In this document: one piece after another, positions 2,326 through 64,000 of the stretch
Layout: every line of letters begins with the position of its first letter
Position numbering within the stretch: the stretch's first letter is position 1
DNA from: an uncultured Alphaproteobacteria bacterium
GTDB taxonomy: Bacteria > Pseudomonadota > Alphaproteobacteria > Micropepsales > Micropepsaceae
Length of the DNA stretch: 64,000 nt
Direction: 5' to 3'
NCBI GenBank assembly: GCA_963741725.1
Contig: CAVUJC010000011.1
Span: forward strand, 126,524 to 190,523
Made by a program: the position numbers and the translations under genes
The notes under the pieces: model-generated
Seen by the model: the letters and a program-made list of their open reading frames with translations, nothing else
The model's database searches: none
What the model was told of the DNA's origin: nothing

Positions 2326-2328
2326 ACA

Positions 2329-2745: not shown

Positions 2746-2788
2746 GTCTCGGGACTGTGGATCCGTCAATCCGCACCAGCTCTTCGGC

Positions 2789-3331: not shown

Positions 3332-3350
3332 GGCCGGGTTGTAGCGAAGA

Positions 3351-3381
3351 CCCTCGCCGTTCGACAAGCTCAGGGTGAGCG
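3351..3381. repeat. REP-like palindromic repeat unit
   Basis: CCCTCGCCGTTCGACAAGCTCAGGGTGAGCG resembles the alphaproteobacterial intergenic palindrome CCCTCATCCTTCGACAAGCTCAGGATGAGGG (recalled consensus). Confidence 0.6.
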
Positions 3382-3411
3382 CCGTGGTCAATCCCTCATC
3401 GCGCGCCACGA

Positions 3412-16927: not shown

Positions 16928-17024
16928 CGCGCCGGGCTTACGCAAATCTCCTTAAGCAACGTTCCGAATAGATCGCGCCGCCAAGTGCGGCCAGCATGGC
17001 TCCGCAACATGGCGGGCAGCGGAC

Positions 17025-17321
17025 ATGACGCCTCATCTGATTACACGCGGATTGCTGACGTTTGTATTTGTCTGGCTGATGCTACCGCATGAACCGGATG
17101 TCGGATTGGGCAGTCCGCAGCAGCCGCTCGCAGTTTCGCCAGTCGCTGCGTCGACACCTTGCCGGCCAGTGCACGTGAGGACGTGCGACGGCGTCGTCTT
17201 TCGCGCGCTGTTCGACTCCGTCGGCTCTCTTGTCAGCATGCGCGCGAATCTGCTGGACGGCGTCGAGCGCGTCCGCGCCGATGTTGCGGCCAACCGGCGC
17301 GGCGCACACAAAACACCTTAG
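17025..17321 (+). CDS. Hypothetical protein with N-terminal hydrophobic segment
   Basis: 98-aa ORF filling gap; TM/signal LLTFVFVWLML followed by PHEPDVGLG. Confidence 0.5.
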   Translation: MTPHLITRGLLTFVFVWLMLPHEPDVGLGSPQQPLAVSPVAASTPCRPVHVRTCDGVVFRALFDSVGSLVSMRANLLDGVERVRADVAANRRGAHKTP

Positions 17322-20416: not shown

Positions 20417-20506
20417 TGGCGGACAGGGTGGGATTCGAACCCACGATACCCGTAAAGGTACTCCGCATTTCGAGTGCGGTGCCATCAACCGCTCGACCAC
20501 CTGTCC
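20417..20506 (-). tRNA. tRNA-Ser(CGA)
   Basis: GGACAGGTGGTCGAGCGG...CCGCA-CTCGAAA-TGCGG, long variable arm, GGTTCGAATCC, encoded CCA; 90 nt. Confidence 0.97.
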
Positions 20507-26412: not shown

Positions 26413-26497
26413 TGGTGCGGGCGGTCGGAATCGAACCGACACTCCTTGCGGAACCAGATTTTGAGTTTGGCGCGTCTACCAGTTCCACCACGCCCGC
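26413..26497 (-). tRNA. tRNA-Leu(CAA)
   Basis: GCGGGCGTGGTGGAACTGGTAGAC...CTCAAAA loop, variable arm, GGTTCGATTCC, encoded CCA; 85 nt; one anticodon-stem mismatch. Confidence 0.95.
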
Positions 26498-34640: not shown

Positions 34641-34820
34641 CGGCGCAGCGAACCGACTTAGGTTCCCGCCACGCGCTTGGTCTAGGGAACGCGGTGCAAC
34701 ACCGCGGCTGCCCCCGCAACTGTAACCGGAGAGCGAACCATTCAGTTGCCACTGAGGTGAAAGCCTTGGGAAGGCGGATGGGGAGCGATGAACCGGGAGC
34801 CAGGAAACCTGCCTCGCGCC
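34641..34820 (+). ncRNA. Cobalamin (AdoCbl) riboswitch
   Basis: AGGT..AGGGAA, GCGGTGCAACACCGCG, GCCCCCGCAACTGT (34710-23), GCCACTG (34748-54), GGGAAGGC (34768-75), GAGCCAGGAAACCTGCC (34797-813); upstream of TonB receptor. Confidence 0.95.
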
Positions 34821-34980
34821 GTCGTCCTGTTTCCGTCCGGGGTGTGACGGGGGCTGCGGGGGAAACCGTCGCGACGACAATTGGAGTCGTCGCCGCGGGG
34901 CCCGGATGCGTTTGAAGCGTTTGCTCAAAGTCGTAAGGCGTTGCCGCGTGCCGGCTTCTGGAACCAACCAGGAGAAGGTC

Positions 34981-48528: not shown

Positions 48529-49334
48529 TGGTGATCGAGACAAAAGACTTTCAGTGCGTCCTATATTCCGTTCGCGACCACGTGCTGATGATTACGCTCA
48601 ATCGCCCGGAGCGGCGTAACGCCTTGAACCACCGCGCCTATGCCGAAATCGAAGCTGCGTTTCGCGCGGCAAACGAGGACCAGGACGTTCGAGTGGTGAT
48701 CGTCACCGGTTCGGACCCCGCCTTCTGCTCCGGCGAAGACGTCAAAGAGATGATGACGGGTGAGGCACGGCCGGCTACGCCTGCAGCCGCGACGACGGGA
48801 CGGCCGCCAACGCCGGCCGCGATGGCTGCGCTGGAGTGTGAGAAGCCGGTTATCGCTGCAGTAAATGGCTCGGCGGTCGGATGGGGTATGGAACTGGCGC
48901 TCTATGCCGATATTCGTCTCGCTTCCGAGAATGCGAAATTCGCAGAGCTTTTCGTCAAACGTGGCTTGGTCGCCGATGTTGGCGGCTTCTACCGCCTGCC
49001 GGCTCTGGTTGGCCCCTCGAAGGCCGCTGAACTCCTGCTCACGGGCGATCAAATCGATGCGCGAGAAGCATTACGTATCGGCCTCGTCTCGGAAGTTCTT
49101 CCTCATGGAGAATTGATGACGCGCGCTCATGCGCTTGCTGCAAAAATTGCAGCGAACCCGCCGCTGGCCGTCCGTGCGATCAAAGACGGTCTGCGGCGTG
49201 TAGCGCCTGGCGACCCGCGCCAAATCGGCAGTTGGGCAATCGATACCATTTACCGTCTATTCCAGACGGAAGACCATCGCGAAGGCGTCAAAAGCTTTCT
49301 GGAAAAGCGCGAGCCTGTTTTCAAGGGCCGCTAG
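48528..49334 (+). CDS. Enoyl-CoA hydratase/isomerase
   Basis: TLNRPERRNAL, AFCSGED, IAAVNGSAVGWG, GVKSFLEKR. Confidence 0.92.
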   Translation: MVIETKDFQCVLYSVRDHVLMITLNRPERRNALNHRAYAEIEAAFRAANEDQDVRVVIVTGSDPAFCSGEDVKEMMTGEARPATPAAATTGRPPTPAAMAALECEKPVIAAVNGSAVGWGMELALYADIRLASENAKFAELFVKRGLVADVGGFYRLPALVGPSKAAELLLTGDQIDAREALRIGLVSEVLPHGELMTRAHALAAKIAANPPLAVRAIKDGLRRVAPGDPRQIGSWAIDTIYRLFQTEDHREGVKSFLEKREPVFKGR

Positions 49335-49399
49335 ACGACTGTCGCAGAACTGTCGAATGTGACGCTTATTCAAACCATGCAATCCTGGAAGTAACCGGC

Positions 49400-52186
49400 A
49401 TGAAACTGATTACAGCGCTCGCCGTTTCGGTCGCGATGCTCGGCAGCGCGGCGGCCGCGGCCGACAGCCAGCTTTGGCTCCCGACCGGCCAGACCGTGAC
49501 GCCACAGGCGGCGCCCGGATCAGTCTTTCAACCCCTGACGGCGGATCTTCCCGTAGTTGGCAAGCAGTTGGTGGGCGGCGGAGCAACGACCGCACTCTCG
49601 TCAGACGGTAAACTGTTGTTCCTTCTGACGGCAGGCTTCAATACTTGGCGCGGACCGGACGGAAAGCGCGTGGCTGATGCGTCGACTGAACATCTTTTCG
49701 TTTATTCGCTGAGCGACGGATTGAAGCTCCAACAGGACATTCACGTTCCCAACAGCTATGGCGGGCTGACGGTCGCTCCCGACGGCAAGACGCTCTACAT
49801 CGCAGGCGGAATGGACGACAACATCCATACCTATCGTGTTGATCCTTCAGGCGCGTGGGCAGAAGCCGGATCACCAATTTCCCTAGGTCACGCTTCAGGA
49901 AATGGACTTGTTCGCGGCAATGCCGAGCTGATGAAGCCGATGGCCGCGGGCATAGCACTTGCGCCGGACGGGAGTCGCCTTCTTGTCGCCAATTACGAGA
50001 ACGATTCCGTCTCACTCGTCGATCTCGCAAAAGGCAAAGTTGCTGCAGAGCTGGACCTTCGTCCCGGCAAGATCGATCGCAAGCAGTCCGGCACACCGGG
50101 GGGCGAGTTCCCGTACTGGATCGTCATCGGCCCGAATGACACCGCCTATGTATCCAGCCTGCGTGACCGCGAGATCGACGTCATATCTCTTGCGGGCTCA
50201 TTGCGGATTACGGGCCGGATCAAGGTCGAAGGCAACCCGAACCGCATGACGCTAAATCGCGATGGTTCCCGGCTTTTCGCATCGGCCGACAATTCGGATC
50301 GCGTTTTTGTGATCGATACCAAGGCCAGCCGGGTTGTCGCGACGATTTCCATGCGCGCACCTGCTGGGTGGGGTCCGAACGCTCAACTGCCGGGCGCGGC
50401 GCCAAACAGTCTCGCGCTGTCACCGGACGAAAATGCGCTCTACGTCACGGAGGGCGGCATAAATGCGGTCGGCATTGTACGGCTGACCGGCATGCCCGCC
50501 CTGGCCGGTCTGATACCCGTTGCCTGGCAACCGAACTCCGTGACCGTGAGCAGCGATGGACGAACGCTTTTCGTGACGAACGGAAAAAGTCCGGCCGGAC
50601 CAAACCCGCTGAACTGTATGAAAGTCAAACATGACTCGCCGTCCTGCGACGCGGCCCACCAGCTGCACGCCGGCAATCAGTATGTCTGGCAGCAGATGAC
50701 TGGCGGAATCACGGCCATTCCGGTTCCCGATGCCGACACTCTGAAACGCCTCACCGCGATCACCGCCGACAATAACGGTTTCCGTGAAGTTCCCTCGCCC
50801 GATGAGACGAAGCTCATGGCGGCGGTGAGTACGCGCATCAAGCATGTGATCTACATCGTTCGCGAGAACCGGACTTACGACCAGATCCTTGGAGACTTGC
50901 CACACACGGACGGTGATCCCGGCCTTGTGCAGTTTGGTCCGACCGTCACGCCGAACCAGCATGCATTGGCGTCAGAGTTTGTCGCGCTCGACTCGTTCTT
51001 TGACAGCGGCGAAGCGAGCGGGAATGGCTGGCAATGGTCGACTGCGGCCCGAACGACGGATGTCACCGAAAAGGAGATGCCGGTCAACTATGCCGATCGC
51101 GGCCTGTCCTACGATTTTGAAGGCACGACACGCGACATCAACGTCGCCCTCGAACACAAGGCGCGCATCGCGGCCAATCCGCTTGGCGACCCGGACCCGG
51201 ACCTTCTTCCCGGGCGCGCAAACCAGGCTGCTCCTGACGGTCCCGATGGCGAGCGCGAACAGGGCTATCTGTGGAACGCCGTCCTGCGCGCGCGCGAAAC
51301 AATTCGCAACTACGGCTTCTTCCTGGATCTCGCACGTTACGAACCCGGCATTCCGGCCAAGACCGCCGTATCGCTCGACCACGATCCCGCAGCCAAAAAA
51401 CTCCGCGTGGCGTTTGTCACGAACAAGGATCTGGCTCCCGTTACAGACCCTTATTTCCGCGGCTTTGATAATCAGTATGCAGACTATTGGCGCTATCAGG
51501 AGTGGAACCGCGAATTCTCGAACTACGAAAAAAGAAATTCGCTCCCGCGGCTCGAGACCGTTCGTTTCATGCATGACCATACCGGCAACTTCGCGACCGC
51601 GGCGGACGGTGTGAATACGCCGGAGACACAGGTTGCCGACAACGACTACGCCGTGGGCCTTCTGATAGACCGCGTTGCGCACAGCCGTTTCGCCAAGGAT
51701 ACGTTGATCTTCGTGATCGAGGACGATGCGCAGGACGGTCCCGACCATGTCGACGCCCACCGCTCCGTCGCCTTCATCGCCGGACCTTATGTGAAGCACG
51801 GGGTAGTGATTTCGGATCGCTACACGACCGTGAACTTCCTCAAAACGATGGAAGTCGTGCTGGGGCTAAAGCCCCTGAACTTCCACGATGCGAACGCCAA
51901 GCCGATGGCGAACGTGTTTGACCTGGCGCAGACCGATTGGACCTACAATGCGCGGGTCCCGGACATGTTGCGCTCGACGAGTTTGCCTTTGCCGCCGCAG
52001 AAGGGCGCGACTGTTGTGCGGCCGAGGCATGATGCAGCCTATTGGGCGGCGAAGACCGCCTCGTTCGATTTCTCTTCGGAGGACCGGCTTGATGTCGGCG
52101 CGTATAACCACCTGCTGTGGGCCGGCATCAACGGCGATGCGCCCTATCCCGCGACGCGCGACGGACGCAATCTCAGGCTCAAATAG
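49400..52186 (+). CDS. Secreted YncE-like beta-propeller / alkaline phosphatase-like phosphoesterase fusion
   Basis: Signal peptide, propeller repeats, IKHVIYIVRENRTYDQILGD, IEDDAQDGPDHVDAHR. Confidence 0.85.
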   Translation: MKLITALAVSVAMLGSAAAAADSQLWLPTGQTVTPQAAPGSVFQPLTADLPVVGKQLVGGGATTALSSDGKLLFLLTAGFNTWRGPDGKRVADASTEHLFVYSLSDGLKLQQDIHVPNSYGGLTVAPDGKTLYIAGGMDDNIHTYRVDPSGAWAEAGSPISLGHASGNGLVRGNAELMKPMAAGIALAPDGSRLLVANYENDSVSLVDLAKGKVAAELDLRPGKIDRKQSGTPGGEFPYWIVIGPNDTAYVSSLRDREIDVISLAGSLRITGRIKVEGNPNRMTLNRDGSRLFASADNSDRVFVIDTKASRVVATISMRAPAGWGPNAQLPGAAPNSLALSPDENALYVTEGGINAVGIVRLTGMPALAGLIPVAWQPNSVTVSSDGRTLFVTNGKSPAGPNPLNCMKVKHDSPSCDAAHQLHAGNQYVWQQMTGGITAIPVPDADTLKRLTAITADNNGFREVPSPDETKLMAAVSTRIKHVIYIVRENRTYDQILGDLPHTDGDPGLVQFGPTVTPNQHALASEFVALDSFFDSGEASGNGWQWSTAARTTDVTEKEMPVNYADRGLSYDFEGTTRDINVALEHKARIAANPLGDPDPDLLPGRANQAAPDGPDGEREQGYLWNAVLRARETIRNYGFFLDLARYEPGIPAKTAVSLDHDPAAKKLRVAFVTNKDLAPVTDPYFRGFDNQYADYWRYQEWNREFSNYEKRNSLPRLETVRFMHDHTGNFATAADGVNTPETQVADNDYAVGLLIDRVAHSRFAKDTLIFVIEDDAQDGPDHVDAHRSVAFIAGPYVKHGVVISDRYTTVNFLKTMEVVLGLKPLNFHDANAKPMANVFDLAQTDWTYNARVPDMLRSTSLPLPPQKGATVVRPRHDAAYWAAKTASFDFSSEDRLDVGAYNHLLWAGINGDAPYPATRDGRNLRLK

Positions 52187-52192
52187 CGCCCG

Positions 52193-53062
52193 TCATGGCG
52201 CTGTGCGTTTGACGGGAACCGGGACGCTGCAGATGTCGAGCACAGGCGGTGGCTTGCGAAAGTAGAATGGCGACGTCGGATGACGTCGCAATTCGACGGC
52301 ATCGGCAAAAGTCTTGGATTCCGTGCGGATAACTGAAAACGCAGGTCTTTCAGACACTGGCATGTCTGCGGCGATGCGAACGCGCAGGATTTTGTCAGCC
52401 CTGGAGAAGTCTGCGATCACACCGTTGTCGACGTCGGGATCTCCCCGTTCGAGTTTCTGAAGAAACTGCATGCCCGACAAGACACGGCCGAACGCAGTGA
52501 GATCGCGATCAAGACGCCGTGGCGCTTCGCCAATGACGACGTAGAACTCGGTCGTGGCGGTGTCGGGATCGTTGTCGCGTGCGAACGCGAACGTGCCGGG
52601 GCAATGGACCAGCCATTCACGGCCCGAACTGGAATCGCGCGCGACTGCGAACCCATCCTCGAAGCCCACTTCGGGAGCAAAAAGGTCCGCATTGCCGAGC
52701 GGCGTGAAGATCGGCTCAGGTTTTGAAGCCCGATCGAATTCTGCTTTCAGCGCTGGCCATTGATTGAGCGTTTTGGCTTCAACCGGATGATCCTTGGTGG
52801 AGGCAGTGCCCTCCCCGATGCCGCCCTGTGCCACAAAACCATCAATGACGCGATAGAACGCCAGGCCATCATAGAAGCGAGCACGGATCAGCGCCCGCAC
52901 CCGCTCTGCATGATTCGGAGCAAATTCTGGTGCAAGTTCCACGGCCACCTGACCGTACTTTGTGTCGATGAGAACAAGATTTTCAGGGTCGACGCTTCGC
53001 CAGTCCGCGGGCAAGTCAGCCGCCGAAGCGGACACAAGCGTCAGAAGCGCGAACGAAGCCAT
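52193..53062 (-). CDS. Cyclophilin-type peptidyl-prolyl isomerase (exported)
   Basis: FAPNHAER, FYRVIDGFVAQGG, LDRDLTAFGRV; start uncertain (53062 or 53098). Confidence 0.85.
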   Translation of the reverse strand: MASFALLTLVSASAADLPADWRSVDPENLVLIDTKYGQVAVELAPEFAPNHAERVRALIRARFYDGLAFYRVIDGFVAQGGIGEGTASTKDHPVEAKTLNQWPALKAEFDRASKPEPIFTPLGNADLFAPEVGFEDGFAVARDSSSGREWLVHCPGTFAFARDNDPDTATTEFYVVIGEAPRRLDRDLTAFGRVLSGMQFLQKLERGDPDVDNGVIADFSRADKILRVRIAADMPVSERPAFSVIRTESKTFADAVELRRHPTSPFYFRKPPPVLDICSVPVPVKRTAP

Positions 53063-53139
53063 CAGATGAAAACGTGTCAATTGCCCTCCTTGCAACATGC
53101 GACCGGAAGCGCCTTGCCCTTGTGGCCGAAGCGCAGCAT

Positions 53140-54366
53140 ATGAACTGTACCGCCATGACCGCCGATAGCCAAAACCCCCGCGCCGAACACGTCTCGGCCG
53201 CTGCGCTTCCCACGCTGCTGTCGGTGATGTTCATCAACCTGCTCGGCTTCGGTATCATCGTTCCGTTGCTGCCCTTCTACGCCAAGTCGTTTCAGGCTCC
53301 GGCCTGGCAGATTGCCTTGATCTTCTCTGCATACGCGATGGGCGCATTTTTTGGGGAGCCGTTCTGGGGCCGCTTGTCTGACGCGGTCGGGCGCAAACCA
53401 ATTCTGATCAGCACGGTAATGGGCAACTGTCTTTGCTATCTGGCACTTGCCTTTGCGCCGAACATCTTCATCGCTTTCGTGGTGCGCTTTCTTGGCGGTA
53501 TGGCGAGCGGCAACGGGGCGGTGATCCAAGGATATATCGCGGACGTCACGCCGCCCGATCAACGCACCGCCAAGATGTCGTTGCTGGGCGCGGCCTACAA
53601 TATCGGCTTCATCGTCGGACCGGCGCTTGGCGGATTGCTCGCGCATCCTTCCGCGGGACATGCCGGATTCAGAATTCCCCTGCTCATCGCGTCAGGGCTT
53701 TCGGGCGCCTGCGTTGTCGGTTTGACGCTCTTTCTGAAAGAGAGTCGTGTTCACCAGCGCATCGGAACCCGACCCAGTCGTTGGGCGGTGCTCAACACGG
53801 CACTCACAAATCCCGTCGTCAGCCGTCTGATGCTCGTCACGTTTCTCGCAGGCTGCGCGTTCAACGGGATCGAGTCCGTCTTCGGACTCTGGACACAGGC
53901 GCGCTTCGAGTGGGGACCGCAGGAGGTCGGCACCGCCTTTGCGGTGACGGGAGTCGTGGCGGCGATCTGCCAGATCGCCATAACCGGACCACTCTCGCAC
54001 CGGTTCGGCGAAGCGCGCGTGCTGACGGCCGGCATGGCGCTGACGACGCTATGCGCATCGCTTCAGCCCTTTTCACAGGGCGCATGGATGATTGTTGGCC
54101 TGCTCGCCATTTCGGCGTTTGGCCAGTCCGTTGCCTGGCCGAACGTTTCGGCGCTTTTGTCACGCAATGTCGACTGGGAGCATCAGGGTCAATATCTGGG
54201 GCTCAACAACGCGGTTGGCGCAGCCGCTCGCCTCGTCGGGCCGTCGATCGCGGCCGTTACCTTTTCAAACATTGGCGTCGACGCACCGTTTTTCTCCGCT
54301 GGACTCATGGTTTTGCCAGCGATTTTTTTCGCATGGTACGCCGCCACGCACAAAAGTCGCATCTAG
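53140..54366 (+). CDS. MFS efflux transporter (TetA/DHA1-like)
   Basis: GFGIIVPLLP, GRLSDAVGRKP, GFIVGPALGG. Confidence 0.88.
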   Translation: MNCTAMTADSQNPRAEHVSAAALPTLLSVMFINLLGFGIIVPLLPFYAKSFQAPAWQIALIFSAYAMGAFFGEPFWGRLSDAVGRKPILISTVMGNCLCYLALAFAPNIFIAFVVRFLGGMASGNGAVIQGYIADVTPPDQRTAKMSLLGAAYNIGFIVGPALGGLLAHPSAGHAGFRIPLLIASGLSGACVVGLTLFLKESRVHQRIGTRPSRWAVLNTALTNPVVSRLMLVTFLAGCAFNGIESVFGLWTQARFEWGPQEVGTAFAVTGVVAAICQIAITGPLSHRFGEARVLTAGMALTTLCASLQPFSQGAWMIVGLLAISAFGQSVAWPNVSALLSRNVDWEHQGQYLGLNNAVGAAARLVGPSIAAVTFSNIGVDAPFFSAGLMVLPAIFFAWYAATHKSRI

Positions 54367-54418
54367 TTTACGCATCCGGCAGACCGGCCTAGGCTTTCTC
54401 AAAATATGGGAGGCGTAT

Positions 54419-55223
54419 TTGGCTGGAACTCTGAAAGGGAAAGTGGCGCTCGTTACGGGCGCCAGCCGCGGCATCGGCGAAGCAATCGCGGTCCGTCTGG
54501 GAATGGAAGGCGCAAACATCATTGTCTCCGCCCGCACTGCGGAAAGCGGCGAGAGCAAGCTTCCCGGCACACTGCATGACACAGTCGAACGCGTGCGCAA
54601 GACTGGCGTCGAAGTGATGTTCATCAAGGCCGATCTGGCTCAGGCGCGTGAGCGCGAAATGCTGATTGAGAAAGGCGGAACGTGCGTTCGGTCCTATCGA
54701 TATCCTCATCAACAATGCCGCCATCACTTACTTTGCTCCGGTCGCAGAGTTCACCGAAAAGCGCTTCAAGCTGATGATGGAGGTGCAAGTCTATGCCCCC
54801 TTCCATCTCTCGCAGCTCGTTCTGCCAGCGATGAAGGCACGAAAGTCCGGCTGGATCGTGAACATATCGTCGCCGGCCGGACTGCACCCAAAGCAACCCT
54901 ACATGGCGGGCGTGCGCGGCGGCACTGTGTACGGCATGTGCAAGGCAGCGCTGGAGCGGTTCACGACTGGGTTGGCGTCGGAAGTGTACGACGACGGGAT
55001 CTCCGTCAATGTTGTCTCGCCAGGATTGGTCGATACGCCGGGCGTCGCCGTGCATGGCCTCATAAACGAACGCACGAAGGACCGCGTGCAGCCGATCGAA
55101 TATATCGCCGAGGCAGTCTATCGGCTCGCGTCAGGCGACCCGAAGACCATGACCGGCCGCATCGACTATGCCGAACCTCTGCTGAAGGAACTGGGTCTCA
55201 AACCCTCTCCACTCATCGCTTAG
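54419..55223 (+). CDS. SDR family oxidoreductase, +1 frameshift at 54674-54675
   Basis: RBS GGGAGG plus TTG start; TGASRGIG in one frame, LINNAA/YGMCK in next; removing one G gives EKAERAFGPID. Confidence 0.82.
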
Positions 55224-55804
55224 AGCGGAACGCCGGCGCCGAGGTCGATGTACCGATAGGCGATTGCCGTATCGGTGGTGGTGAACTTGGAAGATGAGGG
55301 CCGCAAGAGCATCACGCCACCGATGAACTGTGTCAGTACGAGCAGTGTGTACTTGTCGGCCCGCCCGGTGAGAAGCGGAAATGCTGTGATTTCGACACTG
55401 CGCGCGAAATCGCCGTCATAGCGAAGCGGCGTGATCTGCCACAATCCGCAAGGCCTCTCGACAATTTCCCGGAGGGACTCCATCGCACTTGCATGATAGG
55501 CCCTGGGTAGAAACTGGAGATAGTCTTGACCCGTGACGCTTCGCTGGATTTGCTGTTCGAATTCGCTGCCGACGAGACGCATCGAAATGGACGGAGCCCC
55601 TTCCATCGTGACGTCGCATAGAATCAGGTGGCGCAGGAATCTTGCCGCACGCTCCGGCCTGAACGCTGCGCGGTGCGGGACAATTCCTTCTTTCGGAAGG
55701 CTGCGCCAAAGCGCTTCGAATTCGAAGCTCATGGTCGAGCGCGAAAACGCTGCATCGGGTCTGCTCACAACGGCAGCGTGGGATTGATACATCGTCATGT
55801 TCAT
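55220..55804 (-). CDS. PAS-domain (PAS_5-like) protein
   Basis: FEALWRSLPKEGIVPHRAAF, RLVGSE, TGQDYL pattern. Confidence 0.65.
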   Translation of the reverse strand: MNMTMYQSHAAVVSRPDAAFSRSTMSFEFEALWRSLPKEGIVPHRAAFRPERAARFLRHLILCDVTMEGAPSISMRLVGSEFEQQIQRSVTGQDYLQFLPRAYHASAMESLREIVERPCGLWQITPLRYDGDFARSVEITAFPLLTGRADKYTLLVLTQFIGGVMLLRPSSSKFTTTDTAIAYRYIDLGAGVPL

Positions 55805-55940
55805 CGCGGGTTTCAGCTTCCAGGACGATGCTGGTCTGCGAACATGAATGAGATGTTGATTATCGCATCCGTATAACTACGGATGACGTTGGCGAAGATG
55901 GAGCGAAGTCATAGTTCACCGCGGATTGCCGCATGATCGA

Positions 55941-56712
55941 TCACTTCTTGTCTGAATAACTCACCGCCATGCCGGCGCGCACGTCTTGCTGCACGCCATA
56001 TTGCGGGAATGGATAGCGAAACCCGTTTTTCGCCAAAGCTTTCATTCCGTCTATCGCCTTCACCAGAAACTCGGGCGGACATGCCATGAGCATCTCATCG
56101 TCAAGCACGCCACCGTACCGGCGCTCGGCGAAGCACGGAATTGAAAGACTTGGCAATTTCGTTGTCAGTGCGCGTCCCCAGGAATCCGCGCAGGCCGATT
56201 CACCAACGACACTCCAGTCGAAGCGCTTGTAACCGGACCATTGCAGGCCGTTGACGAAATAGATCATCGCGCCGGGCGTGGCGTAGAAGAGAGCAATATC
56301 GGGTTCAGTCAGCTTTCCCGCGCCAAGCGGACCGACCGCCAGCGCCTGATACCGCCCGTCGGGTACACAGTGCATCGCGCTCTGGTGAGCACTTGCGTCT
56401 TCCAGGGTGCTGTACCAGACGCCCTTCATGTGGGCGCCCGACTTCCACTCATCTGTCTTGGCTCCGCCCAGTCCGACGACGGCCCGGCATTGCGCACCGA
56501 CGAGATCGTCGCTGGTGACGCCGACTGTCCACCCCAACCGCGAGGCTTGTCCCGACGATCTGGTCAAGCGTGTGAACGGCGGACGGCCGCCGAATTCGGG
56601 GAATCGCTTCCATGTCTTCACGGCGCTCGAACATCTGCATCGCAAAAACGATGCTGCGTAGACGCAAGAGCCGCTCAAGCTCGCCAGAGACTGCTGTCAG
56701 ATCGATGTCCAT
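55941..56712 (-). CDS. DUF169 family protein, +1 frameshift at 56551-56553
   Basis: N-terminus (ELERLLRLR) and rest (GESACAD, PCFAERRYGG) in adjacent frames; removing one C gives DQIVGQASRLGWTVG. Confidence 0.75.
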
Positions 56713-56847
56713 CGCGGTGCACTCCTCATGGCCCGGTCGGCCGAATTGCAGAGAATTTCAGCATAGAACAAGCGCTGGCTTGTGCGACAGGGTCGAATGC
56801 GAACTCAGTTTGAGCGCGCTGTACCGTCATCGGGCTTGGTCAGCCTC

Positions 56848-57282
56848 TCAAGCGATTTTTCCAAGCAAAGCAATCAGCGACGCCGTCTCGGCCGGCTCCA
56901 ACCTCTCGCCGATCGAACCTTGAATCACAGAGGAATAGACGACCCACATCCGGCGCAGCATGCGCCGCCCGTCCGTTGTGATGGTTACAACCTGACCCCT
57001 GCCGTCCTCATGGCACAGTCGCCGAACGACATATCCGCCAGCTTCTATGCGGTCGAGCAACCGAGATAGGTTGTACTGGGCGAGCATCAGCTCCTTCTGC
57101 AACTGGGCTGGCCGAAGGCCTTCGCCGCCGCAACGTTCAAGTTCGAACAGCACATCGTACCAGGCGAGCGGCGGTAGATTGGCCACCTTCAGGCCATCCT
57201 CGGCTCGATCCAGCAGAGTGCGCTGGGTACGCAAGAGGCGGGCCCATGCACGGACGGTACCTTCGCTCGGCCTGGCTCTCAT
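56848..57282 (-). CDS. MarR family transcriptional regulator
   Basis: WYDVLFEL, YNLSRLLDRIEAGGYVVR, DGRGQVVTIT. Confidence 0.9.
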   Translation of the reverse strand: MRARPSEGTVRAWARLLRTQRTLLDRAEDGLKVANLPPLAWYDVLFELERCGGEGLRPAQLQKELMLAQYNLSRLLDRIEAGGYVVRRLCHEDGRGQVVTITTDGRRMLRRMWVVYSSVIQGSIGERLEPAETASLIALLGKIA

Positions 57283-57323
57283 CGCTGCCTTAGCTCATCA
57301 CAATTTCGCGACCCGATTGTCGC

Positions 57324-57343
57324 ATACATGCAATTGCATGTAT
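57324..57343. promoter_or_regulatory. Perfect 20-bp palindrome, probable MarR operator
   Basis: ATACATGCAATTGCATGTAT between divergent marR and GST genes. Confidence 0.7.
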
Positions 57344-57375
57344 CACAAAGCAACAAAAAAATTGGTTCGCAGAAT

Positions 57376-58071
57376 ATGCCGTCCACACAACTCACGCTCG
57401 TCAGTCATAAGCTCTGCCCGTACGTGCAACGTGCGATAATCGCCCTCACCGAAAAAAGCGTTCCGTTCGAGCGTGTCTACGTCGACCTCTCGAGAAAACC
57501 CGACTGGTTTCTCTTGCTCTCGCCGCTCGGAAAGACGCCTGTGCTCAAAGTTGGAGAACGGGCGGTGTTTGAGTCCGCCGTGATCCTCGAATTTTTGGAA
57601 GATACGCAGTCGCATCCGCTACACCCGGCCGACGCATTGGAGCGGGCAGAACATCGCGGATGGATCGAGTTCAGTTCCTCGGTGCTCGCGGACATCGCCG
57701 GACTGTATTCTGCGCCTGACCAGAAAGTCTTTGAGGCCAAGCGTGCCGCGCTGGAAGGAAAGTTCAAGCGCCTCGAGCAAGAGCTTCGCTCCGGACCTTA
57801 CTTCTCCGGCGATCGCTTCTCATTGGTAGACGCGGCATTCGGGCCAGTGTTCCGTTACTTCGATGTCTTTGACAGGATTTCGGACTTTCGCATCCTGTCA
57901 GGCAAACCGAGGCTGGCTGCGTGGCGCTTACAGCTTGGCGAGCGTCAGTCAATCCGCGAAGCGGTCGACAGAAACTACGAAATGCTTCTCTGGGAATTTT
58001 TGCTGGCGCGCCGTTCCCATATGTCGGAAATCATGACGAAAAGCGGGCACGTGGGCGTTGGCGCGACTTGA
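57376..58071 (+). CDS. Glutathione S-transferase family protein
   Basis: SHKLCPYVQR, SPLGKTPVL, FESAVILEFLED, FSLVDAAFGP. Confidence 0.92.
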   Translation: MPSTQLTLVSHKLCPYVQRAIIALTEKSVPFERVYVDLSRKPDWFLLLSPLGKTPVLKVGERAVFESAVILEFLEDTQSHPLHPADALERAEHRGWIEFSSSVLADIAGLYSAPDQKVFEAKRAALEGKFKRLEQELRSGPYFSGDRFSLVDAAFGPVFRYFDVFDRISDFRILSGKPRLAAWRLQLGERQSIREAVDRNYEMLLWEFLLARRSHMSEIMTKSGHVGVGAT

Positions 58072-58079
58072 ACGAAAAA

Positions 58080-58097
58080 TGGCGCCCCCAAGGGGAC
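58080..58097 (-). mobile_element. tRNA-Glu 3'-end fragment, candidate att site
   Basis: Minus strand GTCCCCTTGGGGGCGCCA = tRNA positions 59-76 (T-stem CCCCT, acceptor TGGGGGC, G73, CCA) with no upstream tRNA body. Confidence 0.7.
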
Positions 58098-58157
58098 GAT
58101 ACTAGGAACTGGCGCTTGGTTGTACAGAGGTTTGAGTCGTTGAGCAGTGCAGGCTGA

Positions 58158-58243
58158 ATGCCCGCCATTGGTCGAAAGCAGACGTTCGTCCCGGGCGTTC
58201 GGTCGTTCACTTCGAGCGTCTGATTTCGACCGGAAGCGGACAT
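58158..58243. repeat. Imperfect 31-bp inverted repeat (ATGTCCGC-type palindromic element)
   Basis: ATGCCCGCCATTGGTCGAAAGCAGACGTTCG (58158-88) versus reverse complement of 58213-43, 24/31 identical. Confidence 0.6.
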
Positions 58244-58408
58244 GGCCGGACAAGCTGTTACAACCCGGTCATGGACTCGTTGACTGGGTCTCTATCCGAG
58301 GTGAGAGTGGCGGCCCCAATTCGGGGCGGCCACCTGTATGCGCTTTTGTCGCACCGCCGAGGCACAAAAGGTCATTCGTGCGAAGACAGGCACTTGGGAG
58401 ATACGAAT

Positions 58409-58726
58409 ATGCCAAAGCGATTGCTTTTTGCAGCACTCCTTTGCCCCATGCTTGTCGGTTGCGGAAGGACGAGTGACGTTCTAGCGATGGAAGACGGGAG
58501 CTACTTGGTCGCCGCGAGCAGCACTCCTCTTTGGGAAGAGCCCTCGGACGCAATCGACGCGGTCCATCGCAAAGCACAAACCTTTTGCGATAGTAAAGGC
58601 TTACGCACTGTGGACATCAACAGTCGGGACAGTCGTAGCGAAGCAGTATCTGGTTACTCGGGCAGTAGCGGAGGTACCGGCATGTTTGCAGCCGGGAGCA
58701 CGAGCCTGAATTTTAAATGCATCTGA
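58409..58726 (+). CDS. Small lipoprotein
   Basis: MPKRLLFAALLCPMLVGC lipobox; FCDSKG...LNFKC disulfide pattern. Confidence 0.65.
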   Translation: MPKRLLFAALLCPMLVGCGRTSDVLAMEDGSYLVAASSTPLWEEPSDAIDAVHRKAQTFCDSKGLRTVDINSRDSRSEAVSGYSGSSGGTGMFAAGSTSLNFKCI

Positions 58727-58835
58727 GCGGCCCACATGTCTCGACCTTAGGCGCAGAGTGGACGATTGGTTCGCGAAATCGAACGACCTCAGTTCAACTT
58801 CCGAACGAAATTCGATGGAGGCGGAGTACCATTAA

Positions 58836-59870
58836 TTAGCGATCGGTTATTCTCAAATCCTGCACGCTCGCCGAACCGACGCTCCTTTGAAAAACGGAAT
58901 TGGCGATCAGCCAAAGACGCACGACCTTTACGGGTGGCGAACCGTACAGCTCTAGCGTGTCATCCCAAAGGTTTCGGCGTTCGTCGTACCAGGCACCCAG
59001 TTTGTCGCCGCGGGTGCGAATGACCCAGTGCGTCTCGCGATCACACCAAAAGCTCAAAGGGCAGGAAAATACGTAGTTATTAGGTAGACCTGCCGACCAC
59101 ATATACGTCAGATCCCTTCCATCGTCGAATTCAACTGCGACGGCCAGATAGTCATGGGTCAAGGAGAGGTCTTCAGCTAGTTGCGAAGGCAAACGATTGA
59201 CGAGCCAACTCCATTCCACTTGGGTGCCAGGCGAAATGGGATGATCGACCTCAGTTTGCAATATCCCAACATCGCCATGAGTTTGAATATTTATACGGCC
59301 CCCAGCGCCACGCGAGTAGATTGTTCCGTCACCAAGACGCCAAAGGTAGCTCCAATTTGGAGGGTTACTGATATTGGTAGCTGGCCTTTCCGTTGATTCG
59401 ACGCGCACACGAATTTGGCCCGACGCCGAGGCTCGATGCTGCGAAGGGATTTCGCCGGAGCGAGACGACCACTCAGTCCCGCCCTTTAGGAAGACTTCGA
59501 CTTCTCCACTGGCCCAAGCCGAAAATATCTGATCGTTGTCAACCAGCTTGGCAATGCGCTGCGTACCTGAAATCCGTACCCAAAGCGAGGCGCGAGGTTC
59601 CAGAACAATGCTGAGTGGTCGCGAGAGCCAAATCGCACCGCGTGCCGAAACGGCAAAGTTAGCTCCCGCGGTGACGAATACGCCCGTTGGTTTCCAATCG
59701 CTCTCCCCCGCATTCAAACCGATTGTTGGAGCGTCTACCGTGAATGGCAATGACTCAACTTCTTCGATCTCAAGTGCGATCCGTTCTCGTGACTTCACCT
59801 GTTGTGCAACAAAGCGAAGGAACGTCAGCGCTCGAGAAAGCTCACCGCGCGGTGTCACCATTGTCATCAC
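58836..59870 (-). CDS. DUF3047 domain protein with N-terminal lectin-like domain
   Basis: C-terminal VEWSWLVNRLP, HDYLAVAVEFDDGRDLTYMWS, IANSVFQR; N-terminal WKPTGVFVTAGANFAVSARG. Confidence 0.7.
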   Translation of the reverse strand: MMTMVTPRGELSRALTFLRFVAQQVKSRERIALEIEEVESLPFTVDAPTIGLNAGESDWKPTGVFVTAGANFAVSARGAIWLSRPLSIVLEPRASLWVRISGTQRIAKLVDNDQIFSAWASGEVEVFLKGGTEWSSRSGEIPSQHRASASGQIRVRVESTERPATNISNPPNWSYLWRLGDGTIYSRGAGGRINIQTHGDVGILQTEVDHPISPGTQVEWSWLVNRLPSQLAEDLSLTHDYLAVAVEFDDGRDLTYMWSAGLPNNYVFSCPLSFWCDRETHWVIRTRGDKLGAWYDERRNLWDDTLELYGSPPVKVVRLWLIANSVFQRSVGSASVQDLRITDR

Positions 59871-60985
59871 CGAGTATTGCCGAGTGCACCAACCATGTGT
59901 GACGAACCTCGAAGACCGAGTGCTAGGGGCTCTCCAGTGTCGACGGTCGCGAGATCGCGACCAAGTACGGCGTCGGGACCGTCTCTTGTTGGAGCAGTCA
60001 TAACCCGGAATAGCCGCACACCGACATACGGACTGAAATGTACCAAATCGACATAGTTTGCGTTTTGCCCCCCAATGAACGGTGACGTCGTAATGACATT
60101 GCGCTGCATGAAGTCGAACAGCGAGACATTTCTCTTGCAGACGGAGTTGTGCCTGCGCACTTCGTTCAACGCGGTTGCTTTAAACGCAAAAAAACCAGCG
60201 CTGTCGTTTGCCTCGTAGCGGGCGATGACGGCTGCGTTATCAGGAGGAAAGAACGCAATCAGCCGAACTGGTTTGTTGCATACGCTTCTCAAGGTGGTGA
60301 GCAGCTCTTGATGGCCGAGCGGAGACAAACGCATAAACCGTGTATTGCGATATTTCAAATCCTTCTGAAAATCATCCAGCGTCATCACGCTATATGCGCC
60401 AAATAGGTCTGGTCGATCCGAGGCCGCTTCGCCTTGTCTCATCTGAGCCAGCACTGTCAGGCCCAGTATGTGCATGCCGGTCGCCCCACCGCTCAAATAC
60501 CGTGTTGCGTTTAGCCAGATTGAGCGGTGAAGTGTTGGCGCGCCGTCTGCCGATACTGCGAGGCGCAATTCATCAAAGCCGGGTCCAGGCCTGCGTGCGG
60601 GGTTTTCATCTGAAAATGGATCAAGCGCGAGCACTATGAGCTTGACTGAGGGCTGTGCCGCGGCGTCTTGGACAAAGCGACGCGTTTCATACGCGCTAAC
60701 GCTCGAGAAGCCGTAATTGAAGCTGTGCACGGCAAAGGAGCGGTCGATCAAAGATGGATCAAATCCGTAGCGAACGCGGCTCGAACCTACAAAGACAACA
60801 TTTGGAGCAATTGAATTGAGCCAAGCAGGCTTTATGACGCGTTCAAATCCTGAAATCGTCTGAAGGCTGTGACCTTCGGGGTGGCGAAGTATGAATCGAT
60901 CGGCGAGAGCATTGAATGTGACAATGCCAAAAAGCGCGAATGCTACAGTCGCGAGAAACCAAAGGTGATAAGTTGATCGTGTCAC
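59867..60985 (-). CDS. Membrane-anchored SGNH-hydrolase-like protein (MBOAT partner)
   Basis: N-terminal TM, VFVGSSRVRYGFDP block I, YNFG-like SFNYG, YVDLVHF D-x-x-H; directly downstream of MBOAT. Confidence 0.6.
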   Translation of the reverse strand: MTRSTYHLWFLATVAFALFGIVTFNALADRFILRHPEGHSLQTISGFERVIKPAWLNSIAPNVVFVGSSRVRYGFDPSLIDRSFAVHSFNYGFSSVSAYETRRFVQDAAAQPSVKLIVLALDPFSDENPARRPGPGFDELRLAVSADGAPTLHRSIWLNATRYLSGGATGMHILGLTVLAQMRQGEAASDRPDLFGAYSVMTLDDFQKDLKYRNTRFMRLSPLGHQELLTTLRSVCNKPVRLIAFFPPDNAAVIARYEANDSAGFFAFKATALNEVRRHNSVCKRNVSLFDFMQRNVITTSPFIGGQNANYVDLVHFSPYVGVRLFRVMTAPTRDGPDAVLGRDLATVDTGEPLALGLRGSSHMVGALGNTR

Positions 60986-60988
60986 GGA

Positions 60989-62470
60989 CTAGAACTGGAA
61001 GTAGATAAAAGGACTGAGATTTGAGAGCGCCAGCACCCCGACGATGCAGAGTACCGCGTATAGCAGGGCATTGCGAATGTTTGGCTGCCAAGCAAGCCAA
61101 CCCGCTGACTTCGGCATATAATTTCTCTCGGGCGACAGTGCAGGTCGAAAGGCCCATGTAATTTCCATACTATTGGGGGCCAACCAGACAATCCCGAACA
61201 TTGCGGCCAGCGCCACCACTGCAAGCGGCGAGAACGTCACTAAGTGCGAATGTCCGAAGCCAACAAGTCCTTGCAAAACTCGGATCGCACCTCCCACGGT
61301 CTGAGCGCGGAATACAACCCAGGCCACACTCACGGCAAGAAACGTAAATAAAACTGAGAATGGGTGCAAAATCGACTGAAACACCGGCCGGGGTGTAAGT
61401 GATCCTTTCCCTATGGCCTCGCGGAACAAATGATTAACAGTCAGATAGACACCATGCAGACCGCCCCAAAGCACGAACGTCCAATTGGCTCCGTGCCAAA
61501 GCCCTCCAAGGAGCATGGTTAGCAAAAGATTCAAGTAACGGCGCAGATGACCGCGGCGATTTCCGCCAAGTGGAATGTAGAGATAATCTTTCAGGAACAG
61601 TGACAATGACATGTGCCAGCGGCGCCAAAATTCTATCGCGCTGGAAGCTTTGTAAGGCGAGTTGAAATTGAACGGTAGACGGATGCCGAAAAGACAGGAA
61701 GAGCCAAGGGCCATGTCGGTGTAGCCCGAAAAGTCAAAGTAAATCTGAAAACCAAAAAACAAAGTTCCGAGCCAAGCGTCTGAGATACCCAGATGCGAGC
61801 CTTGTTGGGCTGCGCTGAAAATCGTGTCGGTATAGGGCGCAAGGTTGTCGGCTATCAGAGTCTTCTTGGCTAGGCCAATCGTGAAGAGAGTGGTTCCGAC
61901 CGAAATGTCGTCACTTCGCTGATTGGGAGTGCGGGTTTCCCGAAATTGAGGAATGAGGTCGTTGTGCCGAACAATGGGACCCGCGATGAGGTGGGGAAAG
62001 TAGCTCACGAAGAGTGCGTAGTCGACGACCGAATAACGTGGTGCATGGCCGCGGCTGGCATCAATCAGATAGCTGATCTGTTCGAACGTGAAGAATGAGA
62101 TCGCCAGCGGCAGAAAGAGGTGCGGAATAGGGTAATTCAGTCCGAATAGATCGTCTGCCGTGCCTACGAAGAGGTCTTGATACTTGAAAATCGCGATCAG
62201 GCCTAGATTGAATACAAGTCCAACTTGCAAGAGCCCGTGCAACTTCCGTCCGCTTGCGACGCGTTTCGTGATCCAATCTCCGAGGCAATAATTGACGATT
62301 GTCGAGCCTAAAAGAAGAACCAGAAAGTCAAGCCGCCACCAAGCGTAAAAGGCGTAAGACACCACCACGAGAAACGGACGCTTTGCGGATGGAGTGGACT
62401 TTTCGATTAGACTGTAACCGATGGCCACAACGACCAAAAAAGCGAGATAGGGGTGCGAGTTAAAAAGCAT
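60989..62470 (-). CDS. MBOAT family O-acyltransferase (AlgI/DltB/PatA-like)
   Basis: MLFNS start, PLAISFFTFEQISY, FPHLIAGPIVR, YFDFSGYTDMA, FWRRWHMSLS, GGLWHGANWTF. Confidence 0.92.
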   Translation of the reverse strand: MLFNSHPYLAFLVVVAIGYSLIEKSTPSAKRPFLVVVSYAFYAWWRLDFLVLLLGSTIVNYCLGDWITKRVASGRKLHGLLQVGLVFNLGLIAIFKYQDLFVGTADDLFGLNYPIPHLFLPLAISFFTFEQISYLIDASRGHAPRYSVVDYALFVSYFPHLIAGPIVRHNDLIPQFRETRTPNQRSDDISVGTTLFTIGLAKKTLIADNLAPYTDTIFSAAQQGSHLGISDAWLGTLFFGFQIYFDFSGYTDMALGSSCLFGIRLPFNFNSPYKASSAIEFWRRWHMSLSLFLKDYLYIPLGGNRRGHLRRYLNLLLTMLLGGLWHGANWTFVLWGGLHGVYLTVNHLFREAIGKGSLTPRPVFQSILHPFSVLFTFLAVSVAWVVFRAQTVGGAIRVLQGLVGFGHSHLVTFSPLAVVALAAMFGIVWLAPNSMEITWAFRPALSPERNYMPKSAGWLAWQPNIRNALLYAVLCIVGVLALSNLSPFIYFQF

Positions 62471-63156
62471 TTGCAGCGGGCTTTTTTTGGGGCGCCTGGG
62501 CGCCAAAATTGAGAAGATAAAGCCAAACGCGAACGGTGCTCGAAGCGGATTCGTTCAAGAATATTTCCCCCGCTCATTTGACGAACCCGCCCACGCCCAT
62601 AGTTTTATGAAATTCAAATCGAGCTGGCGGGCACACAACTCAGAATGACCCGCGCTGTATACAACGTGCTTCGCAAGACGCTGAAATCCAACGCTCGCGC
62701 GAGTCAATACCAAATCACGCCATAGTGCGCCAAAATATTAGTTAGTTCTAGGTAGTGCCTGCGCGTTTGGTATTTATTCCGCTTAAAGTGAGCACTTTTG
62801 GACAATTGCCGACATGCCGGAGCTGATCGGTGTTGAGCTCAGGCTGGAAAATGACGGCGAAAATCGCTCAGGCTTTGTTCCGCGTCAATTTAAGGAATAG
62901 AGAATTGGTTCGCCTGTTTCAAAACGATTAGGCTCGCTTGGGACTTACGGGGATCGACATACTCAGCCATGCAGGGGACGCAGCGAAGTTTCCTCTACAA
63001 CTATTTCTCCACGCGTGACATGTACAGACAAATACGCAGAAACAAGATTCGTAAGGCTCGGCTGGACGTGCAAAGCTTTCTTGAGTTCTGACGATGTCTC
63101 CGCTAATCCGCGCCGCCGAGTACTGTGCCAGTTTCGGCATTGCGCTGTCGCCTGAT

Positions 63157-63413
63157 TTGCGTGCTTTGTTTGTTTTTGCCGCCGTGACTTTTTTTGGCCG
63201 CCGATAGCCTCAGCCGCCGAGTGCGATTTGGCGGCCGCCGATGCTGCTCAAGCCGGCACAGGCTGCGCTCGCGCCTGGATCGACAAAAATCTTCACGCGA
63301 ATGACATTGTCACCGTTGGCACGCAGAACAGCTACAAAGAAGCAATCCCCGAAAAGATCATCACTCTCATACGAATGGGAGATCGAAAAGCAGCCAAGAG
63401 CCTCGACTACTCT
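63157..63413 (+). pseudogene. 5' remnant of a PI-PLC gene homologous to 13457-14626
   Basis: 44/58 aa identical to resident PI-PLC N-terminus; frame offset at T7 run 63189-95; GTHNSY changed to GTQNSY; homology stops at about 63413. Confidence 0.8.
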
Positions 63414-63594
63414 CGAGCTGTGCGTCTATCTGGGCTCTGGCTAAATTCATGGCGTCGTTGAGCGACCCCTCAATGATACCAGTTGCCACCCGCAATCCTT
63501 GGACCGAAAGCGGCGGCCGAACGACCCACTTCCAACGGCCTTTGTCGATTCCTTCGACCGAGTAGGAAATGCCTTTGTGCGTCCGTGAGCTCAT
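63367..63594 (-). CDS. Small hypothetical protein
   Basis: MSSRTHKGISYSVEGIDKGRWKWVV...ARAQIDAQL; 3' end reads into PLC remnant. Confidence 0.5.
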   Translation of the reverse strand: MSSRTHKGISYSVEGIDKGRWKWVVRPPLSVQGLRVATGIIEGSLNDAMNLARAQIDAQLESSRGSWLLFDLPFV

Positions 63595-63686
63595 CCTGAA
63601 ATATAAGATTGGTCCGACAGGGCGCGCAACAAAAACTTCACACAATTGTCACAGCAAGTGGTGCCCCAGACCGGTGTGTCCTGGGC

Positions 63687-64000
63687 CTAAGTCGCCTCAG
63701 GTACAAGCAGCCAGTTGAAAAGCGCATATGCAGCAATCGCTCCCACGAACTGAGCTGCAATGAAGGCGGGTGCTGAGGTTGGCGCTATCCCCGCAAATGT
63801 ATTCGATAAGCTTCGGGCAACAGTGACAGCTGGATTTGCGAAGGACGTTGAGGCGGTGAACCAATAGGCGGCGGTGATATAGAGGCCAACAGCGATTGGG
63901 GTCGTTTCCGCTCGGAAACGCTGAGTGCCCAAGATCGTAGCAATCAGCCCAGATGTGGCAATGAACTCGGAAAACGCCTGCGCCGGTCCGTCACGCAGTT
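63687..64000 (-). CDS. MIP/aquaporin family channel (AqpS-like), 5' part outside window
   Basis: GPAQAFSEFIATSGL, AYWFTASTSFANPAVTVARSLSNTFAGI (second NPA). Confidence 0.85.
   Translation of the reverse strand, partial: LRDGPAQAFSEFIATSGLIATILGTQRFRAETTPIAVGLYITAAYWFTASTSFANPAVTVARSLSNTFAGIAPTSAPAFIAAQFVGAIAAYALFNWLLVPEAT

Follow-up and report, generated by a model that had tools for sequence, protein, structure and literature searches.

A displaced 3' end of tRNA-Glu(CUC) as the probable distal boundary of a genomic island in an uncultured alphaproteobacterium

What is the 3' end of a tRNA doing at a place where there is no tRNA? The question is raised by a stretch of 64,000 nucleotides from an uncultured alphaproteobacterium, hereafter the window. 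On its minus strand, positions 58097..58080 read GTCCCCTTGGGGGCGCCA, and TTTTT follows at 58079..58075. The site lies 8 bases past the stop codon (58069-58071, plus strand) of a GST-family gene. The 18-mer occurs once in the window, even with three mismatches allowed. ARAGORN and Rfam find no tRNA body at the site; the only tRNAs in the window are tRNA-Ser at 20417-20506 and tRNA-Leu at 26413-26497. An initial annotation had described the site as a tRNA-Glu 3' end followed by TTTTT without a tRNA body, and the minus-strand read-out, ARAGORN and Rfam all agree with this. It had also taken the whole 18-mer as an exact tRNA 3' end of E. coli-like tRNA-Glu. The tRNA is indeed tRNA-Glu, but the isoacceptor is CUC, not the E. 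coli-like UUC, and exact identity holds for 17 bases (58096..58080). The G at 58097 lies outside the repeat, so that the shared length is 17 bases and not 18. These 17 bases comprise the last base of the T-loop, the 3' strand of the T-stem, the 3' strand of the acceptor stem, G73 and CCA. The features of the site and its left-hand neighbors are:

58080..58096, minus strand: putative attR core, a 17-base direct repeat TCCCCTTGGGGGCGCCA equal to the 3' end of tRNA-Glu(CUC) in a sister contig (L104), in a more distant organism (L090) and in a metagenome contig (X7)
58075..58079, minus strand: TTTTT, probably the native sequence downstream of the tRNA-Glu gene, kept beside the displaced 3' end
56848..57282, minus strand: MarR-family regulator, divergent partner of the GST gene
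57328..58071, plus strand: GST-family gene (Pfam GST_N/GST_C), on the chromosomal side and convergent with the presumed former tRNA site

Left of the site the window has ordinary chromosomal genes, for example purH, bioB, an rlmJ homologue, a secF-like gene and ABC transporters. The divergent MarR-GST pair (56848-58071) is kept in about half of 80 alphaproteobacterial loci (L001-L080, 60-70% amino acid identity), and no other neighbor is common to these loci. No tRNA-Glu was found near GST in genome-contig relatives, which with an identity of ≤70% and only MarR-GST shared are too distant for a test of synteny. In sister strains the GST gene is called with 247 and 231 amino acids. Two further features were observed on this side. 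A cobalamin riboswitch (Rfam RF00174, 112 bits) lies at 34643-34830 on the plus strand, upstream of a long ORF at 34906-36912. A short-chain dehydrogenase gene at ~54440-55223 (plus strand) appears in the window as two overlapping ORFs. The X1, X2 and X13 metagenome contigs have one base fewer at 54670, and the sister contig L102 has a single dehydrogenase gene of 267 amino acids; the split near 54670 is taken to be a frameshift or an assembly error in the window.

How far does the motif take us by itself? By our estimate, a 15/17 match to one of the ~40 tRNA 3' ends of E. coli is expected ~0.3 times per 128 kb of two-strand sequence. Read alone, the motif would be ambiguous and not beyond chance, and it is the sister strains that decide. 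What lifts it above the chance level is the exact 17-base identity of TCCCCTTGGGGGCGCCA with the 3' end of an intact tRNA-Glu(CUC) in those strains.

The same letters do occur in other settings. The 16-mer CCCCTTGGGGGCGCCA is found nine times in viral contigs, and one of the nine lies in a tRNA, a phage tRNA-Asp. The 21-mer formed by the motif plus its T-run occurs twice in JGI metagenome contigs. In L091 it is evidently a plain terminator in unrelated AT-rich DNA; in L090 it belongs to the 3' end of an intact tRNA-Glu(CUC) that has TTTTTT behind it. The L090 tRNA shows that tRNA-Glu genes do end this way, yet look-alikes exist, as the L091 terminator and the cassette of L081 demonstrate. The latter is an IMG/VR contig in which (1209-3955) the identical 18-mer stands between a reverse transcriptase gene and an Avd-like gene, and two adjoining FGE-sulfatase/C-type-lectin-like ORFs resemble the target proteins of diversity-generating retroelements (DGR). 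Judged by its genes, this locus is a predicted DGR cassette and its 18-mer match would be coincidental. Three other IMG/VR contigs (L082, L087 and L088) have in common ...GACGGGGTGTCAATCCCCTTGGGGGCGCCA..., which comprises a T-arm-like hairpin and an acceptor 3' strand without a tRNA body. A phage might use this shared sequence as an attP directed at a tRNA that has such a 3' end.

The hits in viral contigs (the DGR cassette, the phage tRNA-Asp and the non-tRNA contexts) at first favored a reading as coincidence or terminator. On this account the motif is merely an intrinsic terminator of minus-strand transcription, a G+C-rich hairpin plus T-run, and its likeness to a tRNA is fortuitous. The motif is indeed the top terminator-like hairpin between 55 and 64 kb in a consensus scan (CGTCCC-CTTG-GGGGCG, then CCATTTTT), with a 6-bp stem, a 4-base loop and a T-run. 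The identical 21-mer acts as an evident terminator in L091, the 16- and 18-mers are found in non-tRNA contexts, and a related GST locus (L099, below) retains a hairpin-like sequence and an A/T-run at the same place after GST. Yet the motif folds no better than shuffled sequence (z = 0.46). No convergent gene ends at the motif and no minus-strand gene ends upstream of it; the next gene rightward is on the plus strand, and the end of the minus-strand operon is 740 bases away. Furthermore, coincidence fails to explain the exact 17-base identity with a tRNA-Glu in the same orientation 5.8 kb away in L104, the integrase beside that tRNA, and the low-GC DNA bracketed by the repeats. L104 and X7 already contradict it, and we consider a terminator pure and simple to be very improbable. 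The site resembles rho-independent terminators in having a G+C-rich hairpin followed by a T-run. It differs from them in that its hairpin would come from chance complementarity of tRNA stem strands, and in that there is no gene to terminate. The hairpin is probably a by-product of the tRNA, since the T-stem 3' strand CCCC(T) and the acceptor 3' strand (T)GGGG are complementary. The two roles are compatible, and a stranded tRNA end may still stop transcription.

The most informative comparison is provided by L104, a 14-kb ENA contig that was reached via the GST cluster and is 98.4% identical to window positions 56570-62813. Its order is MarR, GST, the orphan motif with TTTTT, a lipoprotein gene, DUF3047, the MBOAT partner, MBOAT, and the first 127 codons of a PEP-CTERM gene. 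About 750 bases after the PEP-CTERM fragment there is an intact minus-strand tRNA-Glu(CUC), GCCCCCATCGTCTAGCGGTCAGGACGCGGCCCTCTCAAGGCTGAACCAGGGGTTCGATTCCCCTTGGGGGCGCCA, which ARAGORN places at 7351-7425 (minus strand, anticodon CTC). This tRNA begins GCCCCCATCG and ends ...TTCGATTCCCCTTGGGGGCGCCA, and the sequence after its CCA is GCCACTCTCGGACAGCTTTGATTTAT.... Orphan and tRNA share exactly the 17 bases TCCCCTTGGGGGCGCCA in direct orientation, 5839 bp apart. A low-GC stretch lies between the two repeats, the GC content per kb being 0.58 and 0.58, then 0.53, 0.55, 0.53, 0.50 and 0.51, then 0.58, 0.62 and 0.61. A JAB/MPN gene flanks the tRNA on its 5' side, as it does in L090 (40% amino acid identity). 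The TTTTT of the window is read as native sequence downstream of the tRNA gene because in L090 the intact tRNA is followed by TTTTTT, and in L104 the intact tRNA is followed by element DNA.

A tyrosine recombinase gene lies between the PEP-CTERM fragment and the tRNA of L104 at ~6598-7290 (plus strand), abutting the tRNA. Separate fragments of this gene were almost blank in Pfam, and only a stitched read-through scored. The read-through matched PF00589 with E = 8.6e-15 and 55.4 bits (cut-off 27.1) over 163/172 profile positions, and has the motifs LYTGSRRSD, HGLRK and LYTKAA, from the RHRY region. A sequence search of the PDB gave no match. The gene is truncated at its 5' end, with the N-terminal 100-150 residues gone, and has several frame switches. 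The loss of the N-terminus is due to a fusion with the middle of the PEP-CTERM gene. Most of the frame switches are probably read errors, since the MBOAT and partner genes are also split in this long-read contig and are intact elsewhere.

Could the orphan be the remnant of a tRNA-Glu gene beside GST that was destroyed by deletion or rearrangement, with no recombination by an integrase? Deletions and replacements between these strains are many (57505 joined to 58129, integrase to PEP-CTERM in L104, and 62814-63407 in the window), and an intact integrase was not seen. However, the tRNA is intact and single in L104 and in X7, and the orphan is an extra direct copy of its last 17 bases. Such a duplication cannot arise by deletion. 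Nor does a remnant account for the integrase gene at the tRNA end, or for an element-side arm common to three different junctions. We find such a loss hard to believe.

The DNA to the right of the site has the following genes, which we regard as probable island cargo:

58409..58726, plus strand: small putative lipoprotein, with a signal peptide and LVGC lipobox and no family match
58836..59867, minus strand: DUF3047 protein (PF11249, E = 6.9e-21)
59867..60985, minus strand: 372-amino acid MBOAT partner, no family match
60989..62470, minus strand: MBOAT (AlgI/DltB-like) membrane O-acyltransferase
62814..63407, no strand: 594 window-specific bases, in place of 1638 bases in L102
63687..64000, minus strand: MIP/aquaporin gene, of which the window end leaves the 3' part, in a probable second island segment and next to a split arsC-like gene in L102

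Right of the MBOAT gene there are ~1.2 kb with small ORFs before the aquaporin gene. The lipoprotein counterpart in L104 is called as a 105-amino acid gene. Overall GC content is 0.53 for 58100-64000 compared with 0.63 for 1-44000, and GC3 is 0.54-0.59 in every gene rightward compared with 0.84 in purH and 0.61-0.72 in the majority of genes at 49-58 kb. Between 44 and 58 kb the left flank, too, is somewhat mosaic in composition. The closest relatives of the MBOAT protein (63-76% identity) are in Rhizomicrobium MAGs (L092-L098). There the context is prs ... lgt ... proC - MBOAT - partner - two-component system with a GC content of 0.61-0.66, compared with 0.52 for the window gene, and none of these core context genes is present in the window. 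A gene of 347-348 amino acids always directly follows MBOAT in the relatives, and the MBOAT gene and its 347-372-amino acid partner always travel together (L092-L098). From its composition and position the MBOAT pair of the window would be a displaced, lower-GC copy, either extra or transferred. It is the lower GC and GC3, together with the position of the MBOAT pair away from its core context, that make the right-hand DNA look acquired. No close match was found in the plasmid collection, there was no exact match to the MBOAT and GST proteins of the window, and no match to the aquaporin fragment exceeded 84% identity. The placing of an island to the right of the motif by the initial annotation was correct on three counts: GC and GC3 fall rightward, L104 is low in GC between orphan and tRNA, and X7 has only 351 bases there.

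Sequence nearly identical to that of the window is present in many metagenome runs from soil, rhizosphere and freshwater, and these show how the site varies. An X1 contig of 2786 bases, with 22 differences, spans it unchanged. X2 and X6 contigs join 57505 to 58129, a 623-bp deletion in which the whole repeat and two-thirds of GST, at its 3' end, are lost; the two sides are still adjacent, and the right edge of the deletion is the inner edge of a 50-base unit described below. In variant A (X5 and X7) the GST flank runs to 58088, inside the motif, and then into DNA unlike 57-59.6 kb even at 80% similarity. The X7 record of 551 bases (depth 7.09) explains where this leads. Its bases 1-47 equal tRNA-Glu positions 29-75 without a mismatch, and bases 399-551 of a contig of 551 bases and depth 7.09 match window 58088..57936; the tRNA record and the GST-flank contig are taken as one contig because length and depth are the same. 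After the tRNA it continues ACCACTCTCGGATAGC..., the same proximal end as in L104; the bases that follow CCA are ACCACTCTCGGATAGCTTTGATTTAT..., nearly identical to those of L104. After 351 bases comes GGGGCGCCA-TTTTT-GST. The X7 strain therefore reads tRNA-Glu, a 351-base element scar, a degenerate repeat, TTTTT and GST, and the MBOAT and aquaporin DNA is absent. With only 351 bases between tRNA-Glu and the GST flank, this strain is without the island cargo.

In variant B (one X5 contig), the right-hand side starts from exactly 58080 behind a foreign flank ...GGTCCCGGTACTGTACGTGAG. The foreign 30-mers at the variant A and B junctions, the variant B flank among them, had no match in plasmids, viral contigs or the loci examined. 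Variant B may stem from a further element in tandem, from a second locus or from a joint of the attP type. The contigs display only standing variation, with no circular form or clean empty site among them; a site in the same species in which the tRNA runs directly into TTTTT-GST was not found, the nearest being the 351-base scar. Two other possibilities were tried and rejected, namely that variants A and B mark either end of an IS-like insertion flanked by a 9-bp target duplication, and that the 50-base unit is a transposon end. In both cases there are no inverted partners and variant A runs into tRNA-Glu.

The window's own lineage arrangement is found in a 160-kb ENA contig (ERZ25039548 contig_53404; L102/L103). 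Its identity to the window is 98.6% over 47375-62813 and 99.5% over 63408-64000, the motif again follows GST, and the contig extends 12.7 kb past the window end. Its right-hand genes are aquaporin, a split arsC-like gene, DUF2721, TetR, SDR, an acetoacetate decarboxylase homologue, split patatin ORFs, DoxX, MFS, an outer-membrane efflux protein, TetR and patatin. At ~69.7-74.7 kb in window-equivalent coordinates the GC content is again 0.60-0.64. The 12.7 kb beyond 64000 contain neither a tRNA nor an integrase homologue, nor any further repeat. The initial annotation had expected an intact minus-strand tRNA-Glu starting GCCCCCA and an integrase near it beyond base 64000. L104 has both, the tRNA 5.8 kb to the right of the orphan and the integrase as a 5'-truncated gene, but L102/L103 has neither in those 12.7 kb. 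A full tRNA-Glu ending in the motif, the search for which it had proposed, turned up in L104, X7 and L090, with the shared end being 17 bases instead of 18. As a separate observation, the arsC-like (LMWPc) gene of L102 (18035-18542, minus strand), next to the MIP channel, is split into ORFs of 59 and 64 amino acids; the gene may be a pseudogene, or the split may come from an error in the long reads.

After window position 62813 the three strains differ. The window has 594 unique bases; L102 has a segment at 15440-17077 with a PEP-CTERM gene and a second copy of the repeat (m2); L104 has a truncated PEP-CTERM gene fused to the truncated integrase. By its arrangement L104 looks like a deletion derivative of an L102-like form. 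The copy m2 is ~6.2 kb to the right of the first (m1) in the same orientation, and 16/18 identical to the 18-mer. It lies within a segment of 1638 bases, which includes the PEP-CTERM gene and is replaced in the window by 62814-63407; this replacement is why the window has no internal repeat. The likeness of m1 and m2 extends to 37/50 bases, both ending exactly at GCGCCA. This defines the 50-base unit, which consists of the core and an adjoining arm:

58097..58129, minus strand: element-side arm, CTCTGTACAACCAAGCGCCAGTTCCTAGTATCG, not tRNA-like; with the core it makes up the 50-base unit

The variant A junction (m3) has the same architecture and shares the 50-base unit in part. The 33 bases at 58097-58129 would be element-derived, being common to three types of junction, and this points to related elements that use the same site. 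In the window's lineage the island is probably made of two tandem segments, divided in L102 by the degenerate m2.

The recurrence of this unit invites another explanation, in which the 50-base unit is the recombination site of a cassette-like system and modules without an integrase are captured serially at tRNA-Glu by a single resident integrase. The likeness to the tRNA would then be only the shared core. Three related units (m1, m2 and m3) have different cargo on one side, the breakpoints 58080, 58088 and 58129 are unit edges, m2 lies between two cargo blocks in L102, and there is no second integrase in ~20 kb. However, only three copies are known, ordinary tandem islands that subsequently decay give the same picture (PMC11476347), the modules have no other cassette hallmarks, and a circular form was not seen. 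Such a system has very little probability in our estimation. The broader idea that tRNA-Glu(CUC) is an anchor for the serial capture of integrase-less cargo modules, each ending in a 50-base att-like unit and served by one resident integrase, we rate slightly higher, though still as improbable. If true, it would be an integron-like accumulation platform on a tRNA gene and not a set of ordinary independent islands.

Two more distant loci are of interest. L090 has tRNA-Glu(CUC) with one base different and the JAB/MPN gene on its 5' side. With TTTTTT directly after the tRNA, it appears to be the homologous locus, like an unoccupied site. L099 has a GST locus 81% identical at the protein level, with a degenerate motif right after the stop codon (967-995, TGGAGCCCGCAAGG vs TGGCGCCCCCAAGG); homology to the window stops near 58093, there are different genes rightward, and no tRNA was found in L099. 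Its motif fits an old, decayed attR, but would fit a conserved hairpin too. It suggests that the site was occupied and decayed independently in another lineage.

We can now return to the question of what the orphan is. We put the probability at roughly 0.88 that it is an attR: an element would have recombined into the 3' end of tRNA-Glu(CUC) by means of a tyrosine integrase, and the orphan would be the direct repeat at its distal end. Before integration the minus strand would have read JAB/MPN gene, tRNA-Glu(CUC), TTTTT, with the GST and MarR genes lying beyond on the opposite strand, so that the empty attB would be tRNA-Glu running directly into TTTTTCGTTCAAG. Recombination of attP with the last ~17 bases of the tRNA gene would insert the element ahead of the original 3' end, separating that end from the tRNA body. 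A replacement 3' end supplied by the element would keep the tRNA whole at the proximal junction, where the integrase gene lies; in the window's lineage the 3' side of tRNA-Glu should run into CCACTCTCGGA.... The original 3' end and the native T-run would be stranded at the distal junction, as window 58080-58096. All window DNA to the right of 58080 (the lipoprotein, DUF3047, the MBOAT pair and aquaporin) would then belong to the island, which in this lineage measures at least 18.6 kb (58.1 kb to ≥76.7 kb window-equivalent). What was observed directly is the repeat, the atypical composition and the polymorphism between strains, together with the intact tRNA and the remnant of an integrase, both of these in sister strains. 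From these we infer in what order the integrations took place, and that tRNA and integrase are still present farther right in the genome that the window comes from. Among the genes from 58.1 to ~76.7 kb window-equivalent there are none for conjugation (relaxase, T4SS) or phage structure; the element was not seen whole, and the only integrase seen is the 5'-truncated gene in the error-prone long-read contig L104.

One boundary of a region acquired by horizontal transfer is thereby fixed. The bacterium that carries it, an uncultured alphaproteobacterium of soil and freshwater, is probably near Rhizomicrobium, judged from the MBOAT relatives only. A surface-polysaccharide O-acyltransferase module and an aquaporin/arsC-type module would be strain-variable DNA attached to tRNA-Glu(CUC). 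This is of use in annotation and in interpreting differences between strains in metagenomes. It also shows that a bare tRNA-like motif of 17-18 bases can be read correctly from sequence alone, though telling it from a look-alike terminator requires sister strains for comparison.

The site is an ordinary and well-known kind of genomic island boundary, and challenges no current view. In Sinorhizobium meliloti, islands and prophages inserted in tRNA genes by tyrosine (lambda/P4-type) integrases have flanking repeats 12-98 bp long, and an extra internal repeat is interpreted as the trace of successive integrations at one tRNA gene (PMC11476347). The present locus is similar in that the direct repeat equals the tRNA 3' end (17 bp), an intact tRNA and an integrase lie at one end, the composition is atypical, presence varies between strains, and there is an internal repeat (PMC11476347). 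It differs in its target, tRNA-Glu(CUC) of an uncultured alphaproteobacterium, in that the only integrase seen is truncated and that there are no phage or conjugation genes in ~20 kb, and in that strains vary by large internal deletions, with 351 bp, 5.8 kb or ≥18.6 kb between the repeats.

A second comparison is with ICEMlSymR7A of Mesorhizobium loti, a conjugative symbiosis island of ~500 kb in a tRNA-Phe gene that has been shown to excise. Its integrase, which lies at the tRNA end, is of the P4 type. Both are alphaproteobacterial islands in the 3' end of a tRNA gene, with a direct repeat of 17 bp and the integrase at the tRNA end. In the island described here, however, genes for transfer were not seen.
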